A stretch of 64,000 nucleotides of DNA, from the IMG/VR virus record IMGVR_UViG_3300030047_000010. The stretch is one strand, 5' to 3'. The translations under genes and the position numbers were made by a program. The stretch comes from a virus. Taxonomy: Duplodnaviria; Heunggongvirae; Uroviricota; Caudoviricetes. Numbering within the stretch: the first letter of the stretch is position 1; every line of letters starts with the position of its first letter. Positions 25,790 to 40,115 of the stretch are shown here, piece by piece. A model generated the notes under the pieces. The model made no database searches. It was given only the letters and a program-made list of their open reading frames with translations, and was not told the origin of the DNA.

Positions 25790-26437
25790 CTAAGGAACAG
25801 TATTGTTAAAGAATTCAATGATCAAAACACCCATCTGATCGCGATTGCTGGTATATAGAAACATGTCTTTACAGGATATTCGGCTATGCCGAATAGTAGG
25901 TGATTCAAATACACGTTTCAACAGATGCTCAAAGTCTTGTACGTCTTTCTTATGTCGCATAGTTGCCTGCAAATCTGCCGTTACAGCGAGAAGAACTTGA
26001 CCATGGTACTTCAAGCTCTGCTGCACTAAACTAAAAATAGCCTGCAAATTGCTTAGAAGCTCCGGCCCAAAAGTAGATGTATACAAATCGTAAACGATGT
26101 ACCTAATTGGATCGCGATACTGTAGACAGAACTCACGCCAATCTTGACAGAAGAACTGAGCTTTTGGGAATTTAGTGCGGCACTGCTCGATGTTCTGACG
26201 TGATCCTGCAATATCCCTAGGGTTCTTGTCTAACCCAATCAGGCTAGCTTCATCTATACGCCCGGTTGCTAGTAATGAATCAAATGTTAAAGCACCTGCC
26301 CCAATGGGCTCAAGCCACTTACCATGGAAATCACCAAGAGAATGAATATCGAATTGGCCCTGAACATACTTGCGGTATTCCTGCTTGCCATGAGAAGCAT
26401 AAACAAACTCAGGTGACGTTGTCTTAGTCTTAGGCAT
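25790..26437 (-). CDS. putative class I SAM-dependent methyltransferase-fold protein
   Basis: WLEPIGAG (motif I-like), LIGLDKN, FFCQDW, YIVYDLY at Rossmann strand spacing. Confidence 0.5.
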   Translation of the reverse strand: MPKTKTTSPEFVYASHGKQEYRKYVQGQFDIHSLGDFHGKWLEPIGAGALTFDSLLATGRIDEASLIGLDKNPRDIAGSRQNIEQCRTKFPKAQFFCQDWREFCLQYRDPIRYIVYDLYTSTFGPELLSNLQAIFSLVQQSLKYHGQVLLAVTADLQATMRHKKDVQDFEHLLKRVFESPTIRHSRISCKDMFLYTSNRDQMGVLIIEFFNNTVP

Positions 26438-28602
26438 CCAAGACTTCTCCTATATGTAGTTCCTGTATGATACTAGCAGTGTGCTGAGAAGCAACTACAG
26501 TCATTTTGTCCTTATAGATTCTGTAGAATTTATAGGCGGACCTCTCTTCTAGATCAGAAGAAATCTGGGGTAGCCTTCCATGCGCCTTCACCCAAGATGC
26601 CAAAGGTACAAAACGCTGAAGAGTTAGCAAGGTACCATTGTTACAAACAAGAGGATCATTCCAGTTATCAGCAAAAATGCGACTAGACAACCCAGCAGCA
26701 TCTAACAGCGCACGAGCCTCTAAACTGGGACGTTTAACTGCGGGCAGCACCGTACTGAGCAGATTACGCAGCCGAAACTCTTCAAACGATGGGTAGTTGA
26801 TATGATCGTCACGACGAAGGCTACCCGTGCTGAAAGCCTGAACTAGACCGTCAGCTTTTTCCAGATCTGTCCTGTCTCTAAGTTTCTCCCAGCGATCAGA
26901 CCACTCGGTCAAAACGCGACTATCAATAGTTGTCACAAACTGATCTATTTCTTCATCAGCATACTGCTCTGCAAGCATATGAAGGTAAAAGTCGGCAATC
27001 TCAAATGACGGCGTACTTCCCGGCTTATGCTTTCCGCCTTTGTGATTTCGTGTACGCCGTTCAATGATAGACTCCATGTGCTCCAATAACTTATCAGGAT
27101 GATTCTTAAGCTGTTGATACATAGCCAATTTAACAACGTTTGAGTCCATTCCATACTGCTGAATTAGCTTAGGAAGAGTTACTCCTTGCTGAGTCTCATA
27201 GGCCAGCGTAACTTGAGCATCTAAGTCGGCAAGAGCCTCACACATAGTTGTTTCAGCGTCATCTTCCAAGGCATCCGCAAATTCAGCATAACTTTGTGCT
27301 AATTTAATATCACCTGAATTGTCTGCTTGCCGCCTGCGCATACGCAGTTCGCCGATCATAGCTTTGATTGGTGGCAGAGTAGCAGCAGCTAAAGGATTCT
27401 CTGTTCGGAGAATGTACTTTAGAACATCACAGGAAAATTCTATCAGGGCGCCAGCAGCCGAAGAAGTATGGAATATCTGTTTAGACTTAAATCTAAACTG
27501 CACAGGCAGATATCCTTCAGGTTTCTCGCGAAGAGTCCTACCCGGAATCTGAACGCTAAGAATAGAGGACTTCGGACGAACAAAGTATTGAATACAGGCT
27601 AGCCTGGGATCATCCACACCCTCACGGTATTTGCCTGTGGTTGGCGTGAATTGAATATCGTGATAGGTATCACCACGGCACTCTTTGGTGATAATATCTG
27701 TCTTAGAATCGCCCAGAGTATTCAACAAAGAAATATCTGTACGTGGCACAAGTTTGTAGCACTCGTCTATGATCTTATCGACGTATTCCTCCGTTGTACC
27801 GCAAGCCCGGCATGACGGTGTAGCAGGTACAACAACAAGACTCTTGACTCGATCATTTGCTAAAAACGTCTCAATCGTTTTACGTGCCACAAACTCAGGC
27901 GAAGGGAGTCCGTTCTCCATAGGCCAGATATCGCTATAGATGATCTCATTTTCCAGGCGAGGTGCAAAGCCTTCTTCAATATGCTGACTAAGCGGACGTA
28001 TACGAGACTTTGTCTTATTCTTTAAGATGAACTCCCACGAACCGGTAGATACAAACGGCGTTGCTGTCAGTAGCAGCATTCGAGCACCTTTATCTACAGC
28101 ACACTGTACGACACTCGTCAGGTTATTCAGCATTAAGGTGATGTGCTTCATCAACTACAATAAGTAAATCTGAGCAGTCGTCCAACTGCTCAAAAGCATG
28201 AGCATCTTCAGCTTTTGCGTTAGCCAAAGATGCGTGACATGCAATATAGGCACCCACACGATCTGTCTGCAGCATAGCTAGAAGAGCACCATCTGTTGTC
28301 TGAAAGTCTAGTGGCCGAACGCCACCGTTCTGAAGCCAGCTAAACGAGTCAGACGTATACGTTACGCCGTAGTCCCGATCACGTGCAAACCCAAAACGGA
28401 TTGCTATCAATGGTGTCAGTACCAGAATTTTCTTGATCCCTAGACTAGGACATTCCAGAGCAAACCGACTAATCAAATGGGCCTGCATAGACTTTCCTGC
28501 ACCCGGTGGCTGCCCAATCAACAAATGTGGACGCTGCGGATTAGCCAGTACATGGAAAGCCCACGTAAGTGTCTCTTCCTGATACTTGCGAAGCTTTTTC
28601 AC
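26430..28602 (-). CDS. SF2 DExH helicase (Res/RadD-like) with helicase-associated C-terminal domain, split by a +1 frameshift at ~28125
   Basis: ORF 28123-28617: LRKYQ, GQPPGAGKS (Walker A), IVVDEAHH (Walker B). ORF 26430-28154 continues with LLLTATP (III), REGVDDP (V), QIPGRTLR (VI) and LASWVKAHGRLP (HA-like). Confidence 0.85.
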
Positions 28603-28603
28603 T

Positions 28604-30520
28604 TTAATCAACAGCAATCCCCTGGCCAGAAGTCAACGCAGCCTTTCGCAGTAACTTAGCTTGCTTACGGGCTTCTTTCTGAGTTAATGCTTCACCAAAT
28701 CTGCGTAAAGCATCCGTTCCTGACTTAGCTCCAAGAACAAGTTTTGGGTGATCAAACGGAATATACAGTAGACGGGTAGGTGCATTAGCAACAACATCAT
28801 CACACATTGTAGCACCAGTAGAAATAACATGACCGCAGCTACAGGTGTGCAGAGGATCATAGTCAGAAGAGACCACGATCACGTTCTTCTGCATAGTAGC
28901 AGCAGACGCAACAAGCATGCTACGCAATGTTCCAGCAGCTAGCTGATGTGTGAACCTGTTGATATTGCGCCGTCGGATAGCGCAGCCACGCCATCTGCGA
29001 GGCTTCTTATCTTTGTCCTTCTCCCCATCTTTCTTTGTCTTTGCCTTTGCCTTGAAACCTTCGTTCAAAGGAATATCTTGAATGACAAATGTAGTTGCTT
29101 CTGATGCTACCCAGGAATGCACAATGTGCCGTCTTAAGTTTGTCAGTATACCAGCACTACGAGCATGCAACATAGATAGCTCAAACTTGGCTTTACGATG
29201 ATTCTTAGATTTCATCCTCACGGAGAACCCACAAGAACACTTAAAAGTGTTAAGATCAGCAACAGCTTCGTCTGAGGCAACTGCGCCACAAATAGGACAA
29301 ACGTGTGTAGTCTTGAACGTCTGGCTAGCTCGCTTATGCAGCTCATACTTACGAGAAACCTCACGCTGCTTCATGACAATAGCGTTTTGATTCTTTTCAT
29401 ACTTCTTAGCCAGAGCGGCACAATTAGGATAGCTAGTTACAGAACGAAGAGCATCAAGACTCCGCATCATCCGGAATCCGGTACTAGTTGTAATAGCGGC
29501 TGGACGAAAATCAAGTGCCATAGTTTTATTAATGTCAACAGGATACAACACAGGACTATGGTTGGTATCAATAGTAATACTAGTCCACCAACGCCCAGTA
29601 CCATCAACTGCTACAGTAATCTGTTGACCTACGGACATCCCAATAACACGCCTAGCTGAGATAGCCTGTGTAATTTCTTTGGCTGATCCCGTGAGAATGT
29701 CAACATAAGCACAAAATTGAACAGTAAGTGCAGGGGTAATCTTAAGATTACCTAGTTTACCATTGATAAATGCGGAAGGTTTCTGCGCCTCTAAAATAAA
29801 GCTAGAGGTACGAGATCTGAAATTCGGGAAGTTCTCTACCTTTTGAACAGATTCCGGATCTGTGTACGTAACAATGTGTGTTTTAGTAGATTCACGTCTA
29901 CGAGAAACAAGAAAGTTGCCGTCTTTCTTAGAAAGACGATCTGACGTGTAAATGCTTTTCTGTGCTTGGCTAAGGCGTTTGGCTACTGTCGAATTAAATG
30001 TAGTCGCTGGAATTCCCAAACTTGCGTCATAAGCAGGGTGTGACTTATTCAAGCGCCGAATAGCACCAGCAAGAACAGTCATGTCCTCTCTAGAGAGACG
30101 TGGCCAGATCTTTTTCTCATATTCTGTGCGCATTTTTGCTAAACCTAAAACAAACGTATCATGTTTGCCACGCATCTTCTCTAGGCTATCCAGAATCTTA
30201 TTTTGTTTACATTGTGTGCCTGGCCGTTTTTGCAGCTCTTCCAACTCCAAAGTAAGAATAGCTTGTTTCTTCTCAGTATCACTAAGAAGAGCCAGTACGC
30301 GATGCTCTAGCCACACGTCAATGTCACCCATATCAAACAGCATCTTATCCGTAAACAACCATTCAAGCGCATCATTGTACATGCACCGAGTTGCCCAAAG
30401 AAAAGTAAACAACTTGTCTCTCTGATCTTTTGTTGGATACAGCTCAAACTTATAGGACTTAGTCGTTCGCACATCACCCGGAGCAGCGCCCAAGATTGGA
30501 GTCTTTTTGCGAATAGCCAA
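28604..30520 (-). CDS. TnpB/Cas12f-like RNA-guided effector with degenerate RuvC
   Basis: N-terminal KSYKFELYPT...ATRCMYNDAL (IS605 OrfB/TnpB-type); RuvC-I MALDFR; RuvC-II FVIQDI; TCSCGH; adjacent to CRISPR array; TTG start with GGAGA RBS. Confidence 0.85.
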   Translation of the reverse strand: MAIRKKTPILGAAPGDVRTTKSYKFELYPTKDQRDKLFTFLWATRCMYNDALEWLFTDKMLFDMGDIDVWLEHRVLALLSDTEKKQAILTLELEELQKRPGTQCKQNKILDSLEKMRGKHDTFVLGLAKMRTEYEKKIWPRLSREDMTVLAGAIRRLNKSHPAYDASLGIPATTFNSTVAKRLSQAQKSIYTSDRLSKKDGNFLVSRRRESTKTHIVTYTDPESVQKVENFPNFRSRTSSFILEAQKPSAFINGKLGNLKITPALTVQFCAYVDILTGSAKEITQAISARRVIGMSVGQQITVAVDGTGRWWTSITIDTNHSPVLYPVDINKTMALDFRPAAITTSTGFRMMRSLDALRSVTSYPNCAALAKKYEKNQNAIVMKQREVSRKYELHKRASQTFKTTHVCPICGAVASDEAVADLNTFKCSCGFSVRMKSKNHRKAKFELSMLHARSAGILTNLRRHIVHSWVASEATTFVIQDIPLNEGFKAKAKTKKDGEKDKDKKPRRWRGCAIRRRNINRFTHQLAAGTLRSMLVASAATMQKNVIVVSSDYDPLHTCSCGHVISTGATMCDDVVANAPTRLLYIPFDHPKLVLGAKSGTDALRRFGEALTQKEARKQAKLLRKAALTSGQGIAVD

Positions 30521-30546
30521 CGTTCATCTCCAAGTTCAAATAGGGT

Positions 30547-30594
30547 AAAACAAAAAGATCCCTGCCTAGGTTTTATTTCGCACCTAGGCAGGGA
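30547..30594 (-). terminator. intrinsic terminator
   Basis: 12-bp perfect stem TCCCTGCCTAGG/CCTAGGCAGGGA (30559-30594) followed on the minus strand by TCTTTTTGTTTT. Confidence 0.8.
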
Positions 30595-30730
30595 CTTGTG
30601 TGTGAATTTGGCAGCCGTTTCGCTAGGTTACCCTAGCAGCGAAGCCCTCCAGTGAGTTCTTCTTCGGACTGTTAACGAGGACCTGAAATACCCCCCGGCA
30701 TTGATTTAGAGTCGCTGTGCTCGACTTGTA
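30548..30730 (-). ncRNA. candidate tracrRNA/scaffold RNA (~180 nt)
   Basis: Own promoter, GNRA-capped hairpin (30622-30637), 10-nt anti-repeat (30599-30608), terminator; no ORF. Confidence 0.6.
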
Positions 30731-30736
30731 GAACAA

Positions 30737-30764
30737 AATATAGTTCAAAAAATTTGTTTGTCAA
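30737..30764 (-). promoter_or_regulatory. sigma70-type promoter for the candidate tracrRNA
   Basis: TTGACA-N16-TATATT on the minus strand. Confidence 0.7.
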
Positions 30765-30815
30765 GCTTAAATTTTAGTCAAATACAAAATCACGGCGACT
30801 GCCCAATGGTACAAG

Positions 30816-31360
30816 GTTTCAATTCACACATGGGTACAAGCTCCTGGATGTCAATCCAGATATGCGAACTGTAAGAGTTTCAATCCACACAGGGGTACAA
30901 AGTACTACCCAAATTTCTCCGCCAACTAATCTGCCGCCATGTTTCAATTCACACATGGGTACAAAATGCTACTCTGGCCAAAGCCTCTCGCACGACCTAG
31001 CGTTGTTTCAAGTCACACAGGGATGCAAAGTGCTACTTGTCAGGAATTGTCGGAGCGGCTGTCGAGAAGTTTCAATTCACACATGGGTACAAAATGCTAC
31101 GGGCGATCCAACGTCGTTAAGCCTGTCAGCGAGTTTCAATTCACACATGGGTACAAAGTGCTACCCATTAGCTAATGCCTTATTAAGACAATACCTCGTT
31201 TCAATTCACACATGGGTACAAAGTGCTACGAAGGAGCTTGGGTGGGATCGAGGGTATACTCGGTTTCAATTCACACATGGGTACAAAGTGCTACCCGCCT
31301 CAAGCTGTCGGCATGCATGGTCATACTTGTTTCAATTCACACATGGGTACAAAGTGCTAC
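30816..31360 (-). CRISPR. CRISPR array, 9 repeats and 8 spacers
   Basis: 32-nt repeat GTAGCACTTTGTACCCATGTGTGAATTGAAAC (minus sense) at + starts 30816, 30877, 30941, 31005, 31069, 31133, 31198, 31263, 31329; spacers 32-34 nt (about 29 nt next to the eroded terminal repeat); degeneracy increases leftwards. Confidence 0.97.
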
Positions 31361-31434: not shown

Positions 31435-31462
31435 AATATACAAGCAAAGCCAAAAATGTCAA
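31435..31462 (-). promoter_or_regulatory. CRISPR leader promoter
   Basis: TTGACA-N16-TATATT on the minus strand, ~75 nt upstream of the first perfect repeat. Confidence 0.65.
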
Positions 31463-37187: not shown

Positions 37188-40115
37188 TTAAGGCAGGAAG
37201 ATACCGTAAGTCGCGGCTGCATTAAGAACACCTTCAAACCCAACGTTGGAATCAATACCACGAGCCGAGTCATACCGGAGAACACGGTTGTATGCACCAA
37301 AAGCACGCTGAGTACGAATGCCCAAACTACCCACACCAGAACGCTGACGGCTAATCATAATCTTTTGTGGAGTAATATGTGCATTCAACCACTCGCTCAA
37401 ACGCTGAATAGCAGAGTCAATTGCACCTGTCTGATCATAATCTAGCGTGACGGCTTGGCCAGAGTTATGGGTAACAAATCCATTAGCATAGAAGTGGTGT
37501 GCTAAGTCCGTATCACGATCTGGAAGAGTAGGGTCTATAACGCATTCTTCTGTTTCCAGTGTATCTATACTGTGTACAGATTCCCACTGAAAGTCAAGAT
37601 CAGCTAAATACTTAAGTTTCTTTAGAACGTCAGGCTTTAACTTAGCTAACAACTCTGTACGCTGTTCTAAATAGAATAATAGATTTTTCTGTGTAGGACA
37701 CCGGCTATCAAAAATAGCTTGAGTTGCGTTCAAAGTCAAACCAGAATACACTCTAAACTTTTTACCTGTTTCTGAATCTGTATGCCAACCCTTATTAGCT
37801 CCGGAAAAAAGAGACTTAATATAAGTACCAACAAACTCAGGGTATGCTTCTACTTGCTCATAGTAACGAACACGCGGCTTATGATCTCTACCCTTATACC
37901 AAAAACCTATGGTATCTGCATAGATATCAATAGCAGAACTTGGTACATGTATTTGCGGAACTTGTGCTGACGCATATCTATGCTTAGATGTAATAATCCC
38001 AAATCTAAGCAGCAGGCTTTGAAATTGATCTAGCATCTTTGTACTAGAGGATGCAAAGCTCATAAAAGTTTTACCTTTTTGCTTAGACGTATCATATGAT
38101 GTATAAGACCCATCTCCCTCAAAAAAGGCTTGAATAAATTCACGAGCTAACCTACGAGGTGCTGCCATGATAGACCACGGAATTTCTTTGTCAGGTGCCT
38201 GCTTAAATTGCTCTCCGCACCCAATCAAAAACATGGCTATTTTACGATTTGATTCTTCGTAGTAGTGTACTTTATTTCCAGCACTACTTATCTGAAATCC
38301 TTTATACTTCGGAGCAACACCAAAGCATTCCGTGAAGTTTTTAACGTAGTCATCTAATAAAATTTGATTTATATTACAGAAAGATATAATCCCCTCAGTA
38401 TTTATATAGCCCTCACTCGTAATGTAGCCGAGTACCCGAGCTAAGGCAGGAGTCATTTTTCTGGGAAGTTCGTAATTTTTAGCACCTTTAATTGTGTATC
38501 TATTAACAGCATCCACCAAAAACGATAAATCAATATCCCAATCCTCGTCAGCACTGTCATGACGCTTAGATATAGCGACAACATCACCCACAGAGATATC
38601 GGCTAAGTTCTTGTTTTGTACATTAAGTTCTTTATCTAAAACTAATACCGGGTGATTTCCTGTTGCTTTCAAAGAGTACCCGTGCGCTGTTTCTAATCTA
38701 TAGACAGGCTTTGCACCAAGGTCCCAAACACAAGTAGGAACATCTCTACCATAAGGTGTAAGCAGCTTAAATTTTGTGTCAAACTTAGCATTTGTGCTGA
38801 TTATGGTATTTGCAAGAAGAGTTTCATTAATAAATGTAAACAAAGCATCTGAACAATCAATTAAGATACGACGCCACTCATCATGAGTGGCAAACTGAGA
38901 TAACTCATAGTTGGAAAACATGCTCAAAATTGAATTACTTGCTACTTCCGGTGCTGTAGAAGCAACTAATTCAGATAACCCTAATTTCTGGTCTTTTATG
39001 TCAGAAGAATTAGCTATAATACCAGTAAGAACAGCTTCTCTATCTGGGTGAAAAGCAATAGATGCTACTAGTTTTAGAACATCATGCTCCAGGGCACCTG
39101 GCCGCAAATACTTAGCTTGCACAAGACCCCGATTTGTAGACACATAAGTATCCTCAGTGACACAGAAAGAAAATGCGAGCTGTGATTGGAGCATATGTTG
39201 AGAATTCAGCATCCACCAAGTAGAAAGCATAATCCAGTATGTAGAGCACTGCATAGGAAAGTCAGTCCAGTTGTAGTTAGATACAGGGAACCAACCGTTA
39301 AACAGGCCCAAGCCCTCCGTAAGAGCCTCGCAGAGATCTCCATCACTAATATGCTGAGGGGTACCTAACCTATGCTGGAATCTATCCACCATGAAACGAA
39401 TAGACTGTATGTACTGAACCATCTGCTTCTTGATGACACGAAACTGATCATACTCCACTTGGAGTTCAGATACAGATGTCTCACGAACAGACCACAGACC
39501 AGTATACAGATTGTTCAAAGGATCCCATAAAGTAAACGCAGATGAGGGGATCTCATAATAGTAAACTATACTATCACCATCTATCACTTTAGTCAGAGCT
39601 GATTTATTTAGAGCAGCAGCATGTGGAATTGGGGCTAGATCAGAGTTATCTGCGTAGGGAGAGGCATAACACTCCAATGTAATCTCCGCCGGATCAAAAT
39701 CACCACGCCAAAACAAACGATGAGGTGATCCTTGAATAGCTAAGTTTACAACATCTTTACGACCTGTAGCTGTTACCTGCTTGTCTACAACAAAGAAATC
39801 AAAGGTATGTGTTAATTGAGAACGGCGCGCCGTAACAAAGTTTACTTGTAACTGCCAGGACATCTCATCATTAGATAACTCACTATCTTGAGGAATTGTC
39901 CATAAAACACGATATTGCCCAGGAGTGCCATAAGCTTGAGCTGTCCCTGTCTGTATCTGAAGACCCGATGGGGATACAAAAGCATAATTCGGATATTTAT
40001 TAGCATCCAAAGGAACTAAAGCATCACCGGAAGAGTTAACAAAAGAGAAACGGAACTCGGCCTGCTCCCCACGTTGCCATGTTTGGCGAACTCTAGATGA
40101 ATTAGCGTCAGTCAT
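37188..40115 (-). CDS. putative virion structural (neck/adaptor-like) protein containing an intein
   Basis: 975 aa; ~408-aa extein with beta-rich N-terminus; TAACTTCT-N4-ATG upstream motif; structural role inferred. Confidence 0.75.
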   Translation of the reverse strand: MTDANSSRVRQTWQRGEQAEFRFSFVNSSGDALVPLDANKYPNYAFVSPSGLQIQTGTAQAYGTPGQYRVLWTIPQDSELSNDEMSWQLQVNFVTARRSQLTHTFDFFVVDKQVTATGRKDVVNLAIQGSPHRLFWRGDFDPAEITLECYASPYADNSDLAPIPHAAALNKSALTKVIDGDSIVYYYEIPSSAFTLWDPLNNLYTGLWSVRETSVSELQVEYDQFRVIKKQMVQYIQSIRFMVDRFQHRLGTPQHISDGDLCEALTEGLGLFNGWFPVSNYNWTDFPMQCSTYWIMLSTWWMLNSQHMLQSQLAFSFCVTEDTYVSTNRGLVQAKYLRPGALEHDVLKLVASIAFHPDREAVLTGIIANSSDIKDQKLGLSELVASTAPEVASNSILSMFSNYELSQFATHDEWRRILIDCSDALFTFINETLLANTIISTNAKFDTKFKLLTPYGRDVPTCVWDLGAKPVYRLETAHGYSLKATGNHPVLVLDKELNVQNKNLADISVGDVVAISKRHDSADEDWDIDLSFLVDAVNRYTIKGAKNYELPRKMTPALARVLGYITSEGYINTEGIISFCNINQILLDDYVKNFTECFGVAPKYKGFQISSAGNKVHYYEESNRKIAMFLIGCGEQFKQAPDKEIPWSIMAAPRRLAREFIQAFFEGDGSYTSYDTSKQKGKTFMSFASSSTKMLDQFQSLLLRFGIITSKHRYASAQVPQIHVPSSAIDIYADTIGFWYKGRDHKPRVRYYEQVEAYPEFVGTYIKSLFSGANKGWHTDSETGKKFRVYSGLTLNATQAIFDSRCPTQKNLLFYLEQRTELLAKLKPDVLKKLKYLADLDFQWESVHSIDTLETEECVIDPTLPDRDTDLAHHFYANGFVTHNSGQAVTLDYDQTGAIDSAIQRLSEWLNAHITPQKIMISRQRSGVGSLGIRTQRAFGAYNRVLRYDSARGIDSNVGFEGVLNAAATYGIFLP
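37464..39164 (-). mobile_element. intein with LAGLIDADG homing endonuclease (567 aa)
   Basis: Block A CVTEDTYV, block B TGNHP, LAGLIDADG motifs LGYITSEG and QAFFEGDGS, terminal FYANGFVTHN followed by Ser. Confidence 0.92.

Follow-up and report, generated by a model that had tools for sequence, protein, structure and literature searches.

A probable RNA-guided DNA binder with a degenerate RuvC nuclease, linked to a CRISPR array and a tracrRNA-like gene in a huge phage

Does a TnpB/Cas12-fold protein that has changed most of its RuvC catalytic residues still cut DNA, or does it only bind it? The question is raised by an open reading frame (ORF) located on the minus strand, at positions 28604-30520, of the window, which is the whole 64,000-nucleotide (nt) stretch of the virus record IMGVR_UViG_3300030047_000010 (Caudoviricetes) analysed here. 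This record is the complete genome of a huge phage, 375,537 bp long and bounded by direct terminal repeats, and the sequencing runs that contain it are peat metagenomes, with no RNA run listed among them. The ORF shows a TTG start with a GGAG motif 7 nt upstream and encodes a protein of 638 amino acids (aa), P0001, with D337, Q481 and V577 at the triad positions. It probably serves as effector in a type V-like phage locus of minimal make-up, whose order along the minus strand is promoter, nine repeats of a CRISPR array, promoter, trans-activating CRISPR RNA (tracrRNA), effector, helicase and methyltransferase-like gene. The residues at its active site and the analogy with Cas12m make it likely that the effector binds DNA under RNA guidance and silences its target without cutting. 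All the features of the locus described below are on the minus strand.

The RuvC-I motif reads MALDFR (residues 334-339, 29504-29521), the RuvC-II motif reads FVIQDI (residues 478-483, 29072-29089), and the RuvC-III remnant, DVVANA, follows a remnant of the TNB zinc finger, C560/C562...C573, both being contained in the fragment 28781-28846. Profile-profile alignment pairs D337 with the RuvC-I Asp, Q481 (CAA, 29078-29080) with the RuvC-II Glu, and V577 (28790-28792) with the catalytic Asp of the D-x-N-A-A motif; therefore, the triad of P0001 is D-Q-V. The D-E-D triad of the TnpB/Cas12 nucleases is absent, and two of the three cutting residues are lost. D575, within the stretch CDDVVANA (residues 573-580), aligns with the first, non-catalytic Asp of DRD. 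An earlier note on this DNA, made from the letters and a list of their ORFs, had pointed to the Asp kept in MALDFR and to a Gln in place of the catalytic Glu, and both are at those places. It had also described RuvC-III as weakly recognisable; CDDVVANA is indeed in place, but the motif is more than weak, with Val replacing the catalytic Asp.

The triad positions are degenerate throughout a small clade of homologues, referred to here as the dead clade on the strength of these residues. They read D-Q-A in P0002, H-Q-T in P0003, D-Q-S in P0004, ?-Q-V in P0005, H-T-Q in P0008 and D-K in P0006, where the entire RuvC-III region is absent. P0002 and P0005 are fragments; P0001, P0003, P0004 and P0008 belong to loci with an array and a helicase, and P0006 to one with a repeat and a methyltransferase-like gene only. 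Gln occupies the RuvC-II position in five of five clade members with 29-75% identity, and the further relatives show Lys or Thr. The triad is D-E-D in the active relative P0007, in the effector of locus L015, also an active relative and accompanied by an array, and in the ordinary TnpB P0010.

Although the helicase gene adjacent to the P0001 gene is frameshifted and the effector gene is frameshifted in locus L005 and truncated in L006, which also misses the helicase, the P0001 ORF is intact over its 638 codons. Logan contigs from four runs, with depths of 18-92, show zero differences from the window over 26400-30970, one of these samples carrying no flag as a potential origin of the DNA, and the same substitutions occur in diverged homologues. 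A sequencing error in the CAA codon was considered and rejected: the four assemblies are identical, and P0002 encodes its Gln by CAG, a synonymous difference. The genes of P0001 and P0002 (71% nucleotide identity, 75% protein identity) show a rate of nonsynonymous substitution (dN) of 0.18 and a saturated synonymous rate (dS), with a dN/dS of about 0.07 that is uniform along the gene. A decaying pseudogene, or an artefact of sequencing, is therefore hardly credible. The earlier note had proposed that selection, and not decay, favoured binding without cutting, and had named a Glu in close homologues together with an erroneous CAA as evidence to the contrary; the close homologues show Gln, and CAA stands in the independent assemblies. 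The low dN/dS, the Gln present across the clade and the conserved array and tracrRNA support such selection.

The protein shows the order of domains by which the TnpB/Cas12 superfamily is recognised, an N-terminal WED/HTH_OrfB region and, after it, a split RuvC fold in which motifs I, II and III come in this order. The HTH_OrfB_IS605/WED-type segment comprises residues 20-53 (30362-30463) and matches PF12323 with an E-value of 6.1e-8, above the Pfam cut-off. Downstream of it, residues ~55-190 (29951-30358) form an expanded helical REC-like lobe of seven helices, mostly without counterpart in a TnpB of 405 aa; the alignment, the structural model and hhalign all bear out the enlarged N-lobe that had been proposed before. 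Against the NCBIfam guided_TnpB model P0001 reaches only 26 bits, with a cut-off of 100. The profile built from the seven dead-clade proteins alone retrieves ISFba1 TnpB in PDB (E-value 5.8e-8), and hhalign aligns this clade with two canonical relatives with probability 100 and an E-value of 7.5e-54 over 467 columns. When the AlphaFold2 model of P0001 was compared by Foldseek and VIA-align, it matched solely TnpB/Cas12 structures, with a Foldseek probability of 1.0. The structural neighbours are ISFba1 TnpB (Z 13.0), ISDra2 TnpB (Z 12.2), Cas12m2 and Cas12p (Z 11.3 each) and Cas12f (Z about 10), values that lie too near one another to assign a subtype from structure. The fold of the superfamily and its architecture of WED, REC and RuvC are retained in P0001, and so, probably, are the guide-RNA partners.

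Upstream of the effector gene, the CRISPR array (30816-31360) contains nine repeats of 32 nt and eight spacers of 29-34 nt, and the repeat, in the sense of the CRISPR RNA (crRNA), ends in ATTGAAAC. On its leader side there is a promoter-like site, TTGACA-N16-TATATT (31435-31462), with 11/12 consensus matches, and the degenerate repeats are at the opposite, gene-proximal end of the array. A second promoter-like site of the same form, also with 11/12 matches (30737-30764), precedes a tracrRNA-like scaffold of 128 nt (30599-30726), whose terminal anti-repeat (30609-30599) is the complement of the repeat's TGTGTGAATT. Directly 3' of this gene, a terminator-like hairpin with an 11-bp stem followed by a T-run was read from the letters (30550-30593); the consensus terminator scan missed it because its loop has 12 nt. 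No Rfam family matched anywhere in the window.

Array and tracrRNA accompany the effector in every locus with enough flank. In the window, L001, L002/L003, L005, L006 and L015, the effector has upstream of it an array whose repeats, of 31-32 nt, are homologous between loci. Conservation of the tracrRNA scaffold extends over the window, L001, L005, L006, L015 and L004 and, more distantly, to L002, and compensatory changes across loci preserve its hairpins. The anti-repeats range from 10 to 24 nt, the one of L001 being perfect over 22-24 nt with a duplex of -46 kcal/mol. These features predict a cognate guide RNA composed of crRNA and a tracrRNA with an anti-repeat, which is the kind of guide expected of a type V effector. 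In the L001 array (L001:1-1003), the 16 repeats show 67-97% identity to the reference and their changes are concentrated centrally, so that many of them would mismatch the perfect tracrRNA anti-repeat. Loci L002 (9439-9753) and L003 (210-524) show an ORF of 104 aa between the array and the tracrRNA-like region, without counterpart in the other loci.

The spacers differ between loci, and related phages have from 4 to about 15 of them. In the window (30848-31328), the G+C content is 50-59% in six of the eight spacers, the phage itself having 43%, and those of L001 reach up to 72%, which points to host or foreign DNA as their source rather than to close phage relatives. Neither Cas1 nor a second CRISPR array was found in the 375,537 bp of the phage genome, which lacks adaptation genes. 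This lack, together with the repeat end ATTGAAAC, which presumably resembles many host class 1 repeats, would suit a decoy or anti-CRISPR, in which the dead effector and the phage tracrRNA soak up host crRNAs or Cas components. A published precedent, for which such a role has been proposed, is the phage RuvC-dead Cas9 (II-C2) with its own tracrRNA (PMC10910872, PMC11656645). However, an array driven by its own promoter, with eight distinct spacers here and different ones in the related phages, would be superfluous for a pure decoy, and the active relatives have the same architecture, which makes this explanation very improbable.

The RNA-guided binder remains the favoured reading. The ancestor of its effector would be an active TnpB-like Cas12 of about 500 aa, carried by a phage and dependent on a tracrRNA, which later lost the RuvC-II Glu and the RuvC-III Asp. 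The array and the separate tracrRNA gene would be transcribed from the two near-consensus promoters, and crRNA and tracrRNA would pair through the anti-repeat and load the protein, as their conservation suggests. By analogy with Cas12m, Cas12c and type IV-A, the complex would form an R-loop where the DNA of the host, or that of a competing mobile element, matches the guide, stay bound and block transcription or replication. Asp337 with Asp482 or Asp575 might, speculatively, coordinate a single metal ion and grip the displaced strand, as happens in Cas12m2. The bound complex may recruit the translationally coupled superfamily 2 (SF2) helicase and the methyltransferase-like protein, and the function of the effector would seem to need neither. 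Cas12m2, whose triad is non-canonical, binds DNA tightly and silences transcription without cleavage, H-D-D and H-Q-K being triads of published Cas12m clades (PMC10442227), and the inactivated V-C, V-M, V-O and V-P subtypes are held to block transcription (PMC12669027).

Several points weigh against a non-cutting binder. The loss of cleavage is predicted from residues, and the AlphaFold2 model, obtained with nine sequences, is of moderate quality (predicted local distance difference test, pLDDT, 72; predicted template modelling score, pTM, 0.53). The terminator of the tracrRNA-like gene is 28 nt ahead of the effector gene, which bears on how the effector gets transcribed. A protospacer was found for none of the spacers: they show no second match in their own phage genome, only a chance-level match of 23 nt (E-value 0.1) by blastn against 50,697 phage records, and no cross-targeting among the retrieved related loci, and exact 22-24-mers taken from spacers 1-5 were absent from genome, metagenome and viral contig collections. 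In the active site, an acidic residue directly follows the Gln position in six of the seven clade members, and Asp575 is retained in four of five, P0005 being without an equivalent. Furthermore, the replacement of RuvC-II or RuvC-III residues in a TnpB branch need not mean a dead protein, since it can go with a rearranged site (PMC10691335).

These active-site points are also those that favour a rearranged but active nuclease, in which other acidic residues, for example D337, D482 and D575, would keep up catalysis, perhaps with an altered substrate, as in pre-crRNA processing or the nicking of single-stranded DNA. Conserved RuvC-II and RuvC-III rearrangements, some of them virus-specific, probably keep activity in other branches (PMC10691335), and the Gln of this clade is conserved and not random. 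Nevertheless, the invariant positions of the dead clade are W312, F426, C430, N440, K443, L451, T477, I520 and G563, with no acidic or His column among them, which argues against a conserved rearranged catalytic site. P0003 and P0008 have His at RuvC-I, P0005 is the member without Asp575 and P0006 has no RuvC-III at all. Since the acidic residue at +1 and the first Asp of DRD are ancestral in canonical TnpB, they are not new compensations. Taken with the residues, this makes a rearranged nuclease improbable, and the non-cutting binder is kept as the better account.

Among the known non-cutting effectors, Cas12m (Cas12m2, PDB 8HHL; GoCas12m, 8PM4) resembles P0001 in its size of ~600 aa, its derivation from TnpB, its presence on mobile elements and its non-canonical triad, and Cas12m2 is among the top structural neighbours of the model. 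The sequence match is weak: a mixed profile including canonical TnpBs reaches Cas12m2 with an E-value of 0.0037, and the dead-clade profile does not reach it. Unlike Cas12m, which uses a crRNA-only guide, the P0001 locus has a conserved tracrRNA-like gene with an anti-repeat; in addition, P0001 has an extra zinc ribbon between RuvC-I and RuvC-II, is encoded by a huge phage, and abuts an SF2 helicase gene and a methyltransferase-like gene. TnpB of the IS200/IS605 and IS607 elements gives the best fold and sequence matches, with Z 12-13 for ISFba1 and ISDra2, and the miniature Cas12f and Cas12n (V-U4) share the tracrRNA with anti-repeat, the small size and the TNB finger. In contrast to TnpB and Cas12f, P0001 stays far below the guided_TnpB cut-off, shows D-Q-V at the triad, and has no transposon ends or transposase. 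No Cas12 subtype model, those of Cas12f and Cas12n included, is reached at its cut-off, the NCBIfam c2c8 model giving 15 bits against a cut-off of 350 and the PADLOC Cas12f and Cas12u matches being partial. The active relative gives 24.5 bits against NCBIfam Cas12f2, with a cut-off of 450. TldR and dCas12f-sigma are likewise nuclease-dead binders of the TnpB lineage under selection, some of them phage-encoded (bioRxiv 10.1101/2023.11.30.569447, PMC13472631). They use a single omega-RNA-like guide and have lost their arrays, while the P0001 locus keeps a nine-repeat array and a separate tracrRNA.

The lineage is very rare. Nine proteins were found at an E-value ≤0.001, six of them at ≤1e-10, among 1.84 billion cluster representatives; word-indexed searches returned only P0001 itself and P0002, scans of IMG/VR with P0001 and P0003 gave no match, and megablast of 12 kb against the phage collection found nothing. 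No description of the module was found in a TnpB/Cas12 survey, a 2023 paper on rare systems, a 2024 review of CRISPR on mobile elements and a 2025 classification (including PMC10691335, PMC11656645, PMC10910872 and PMC12669027). P0007 and the L015 effector pass the guided_TnpB cut-off with 177 and 164 bits, respectively, and match the PADLOC Cas12u4 and Cas12f models at 1e-28 to 1e-33, and the best PADLOC match of P0003 is Cas12u1 (6.4e-7). The backbone of the tree leaves P0008 and P0006 unplaced and cannot show more than one inactivation event. Nuclease-dead Cas12 proteins are already known (Cas12k, Cas12m, Cas12c, TldR and dCas12f-sigma). Here, active D-E-D relatives of 500 aa share repeat and tracrRNA families with dead effectors of 590-640 aa, which offers a natural before-and-after pair for what turns a cutter into a binder. 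If the binding without cutting is true, a small natural protein that binds DNA and has a defined tracrRNA would be of interest for tools of the CRISPR interference type. Just downstream of the active effector, L015 (14136-16400) and L004 (1838-3700) show a single, isolated repeat-like unit under a TTGACA-type promoter of its own, and in L015 a PIF1-type helicase follows it.

The extra zinc ribbon, C408/C411...C428/C430 (29228-29299), is inserted in the long helical hairpin between RuvC-I and RuvC-II and, according to the alignment and the model, sits at its tip. Its motifs are CPICG (408-412) and KCSCG (427-431), and Pfam gives on it a weak Cas12f1-like TNB match. The general form is CxxC...CxxC, with CxC as the second pair in P0001 and P0002. 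This ribbon is common to P0001-P0004 and P0006, its second half is kept in the fragment P0005, and it is absent from P0007, P0008 and the canonical TnpB P0010. The terminal finger of P0001 shows TCSCGH (559-564) and keeps C560, C562 and C573, with H558 and H564 nearby, either of which could be the fourth ligand. In every homologue this finger is complete (CxC/CxxC...CxxC); P0001 alone is without the fourth Cys, removed by a deletion of three residues with respect to P0002. Thus, the inserted ribbon reported in the earlier note is present and extends to the clade, and TCSCGH is found in the terminal finger, but it is not all that remains of it, as C573 is also kept. The coordination of changes claimed there is only partly borne out, since no other genome shares the loss in the terminal finger.

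Downstream of the effector, an SF2 (ResIII/DEAD) helicase gene (26430-28617) overlaps the effector stop by 14 nt and is split into two ORFs, 28617-28123 and 28154-26430. The split is caused by one frameshift just after the DEAH box (DEAHHLNAE-TAA, window 28120-28160), which is identical in Logan contigs of three runs with depths of 18-92x, the fourth, low-depth run not spanning the site. The site (GAA-TAA-C) shows no homopolymer and no known slippery motif; the frameshift is either a real inactivation or an unusual recoding event, for example a programmed +1. The third gene of the block (25790-26437) encodes a class-I S-adenosylmethionine (SAM)-methyltransferase-like protein of 215 aa, whose AlphaFold2 model has a pLDDT of 89.7 and matches Trm14, NodS, rRNA methylases and RlmCD, all with Foldseek probability 1.0; in 21 sequences, its motifs I to IV show little or no variation. 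L001, L002/L003 and L005 have an intact helicase of 705-731 aa directly after the dead effector, often with overlapping stop and start, and in these loci, as in the window, a methyltransferase-like protein of 215-224 aa is next. Both proteins are orthologous across loci, with 27-45% identity, and conservation includes motifs I, II, III, V and VI of the helicase. The helicase is neither DinG nor Cas3, its PADLOC matches reaching only 3e-4 to 1.5e-3, and has no recognisable nuclease domain.

This gene order suggests another explanation, an RNA-guided recruiter, in which the dead effector would be the targeting subunit for the helicase and the methyltransferase-like protein and would bring a translocase and a modifying enzyme to the target. 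In four of four dead-effector loci with enough flank, the stop of the effector gene overlaps or abuts the start of the helicase gene, with the methyltransferase-like gene next, and the conserved helicase motifs also count in favour. The only active locus holding the pair, L015, has it about 6 kb away, and the 9-kb contig of L004 shows none. Cas12m-Cas3 and Cas12a2-UvrD associations have been published (PMC10910872), and type IV-A (Csf-DinG), the Cas12m-Cas3 hybrid and Cascade-Cas3 also place a non-cutting RNA-guided binder beside an SF2 helicase (PMC10910872, PMC11656645). However, the helicase differs from those of the type IV-A and Cas3 systems in being of the ResIII/DEAD type without a nuclease domain, and it is also found without an effector: L019 has the pair with no effector or array seen, and about 6 kb separate the pair from the active effector in L015/L017; therefore, the helicase-methyltransferase-like pair is an older phage module. 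L006 shows the effector and then the methyltransferase-like gene with no helicase, and in the phage studied here every assembly that spans the site has the frameshift in the helicase, whereas strong purifying selection acts on the effector. Since the phages are related, the shared effector-helicase order could be inherited synteny, and the tree does not add a second inactivation. The recruiter, conceived by analogy with Cascade-Cas3, type IV-A and the Cas12m-Cas3 hybrid, is a quite unlikely account of the locus as a whole. Some coupling of the helicase and the methyltransferase-like protein to the bound effector is possible, although we tend to doubt it. A full three-part phage machine, with binder, SF2 translocase and SAM-methyltransferase-like enzyme remodelling or chemically marking DNA or nascent RNA at guide sites, and with nuclease loss as the CRISPR cassette fused onto a pre-existing helicase-methyltransferase operon, is unlikely. 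The recurrent adjacency nevertheless gives a route to ask if phages deliver non-nuclease enzymes by CRISPR guides. In L019 (5346-6299), a protein of 317 aa with faint Helitron_like_N/3HBD matches is encoded between the two genes of the pair, and a helix-turn-helix (HTH) protein precedes the helicase.

Outside the window, the phage holds a second TnpB-like ORF of 426 aa (G000:C1:4909-6189, plus strand), which shows a full C4 finger and the D-E-D-type motifs GVDQG, KLEKI and DVNAS. Thus, one phage contains both a canonical RuvC and a dead, array-linked effector. Within the window, a gene encoding 975 aa (37188-40115) shows 60-78% identity to genes of L001 (6596-9535) and L005 (6179-9106), which indicates that these three phages are related; the gene order around the CRISPR block differs among them. 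The counterparts in L001 and L005 contain intein and LAGLIDADG domains.

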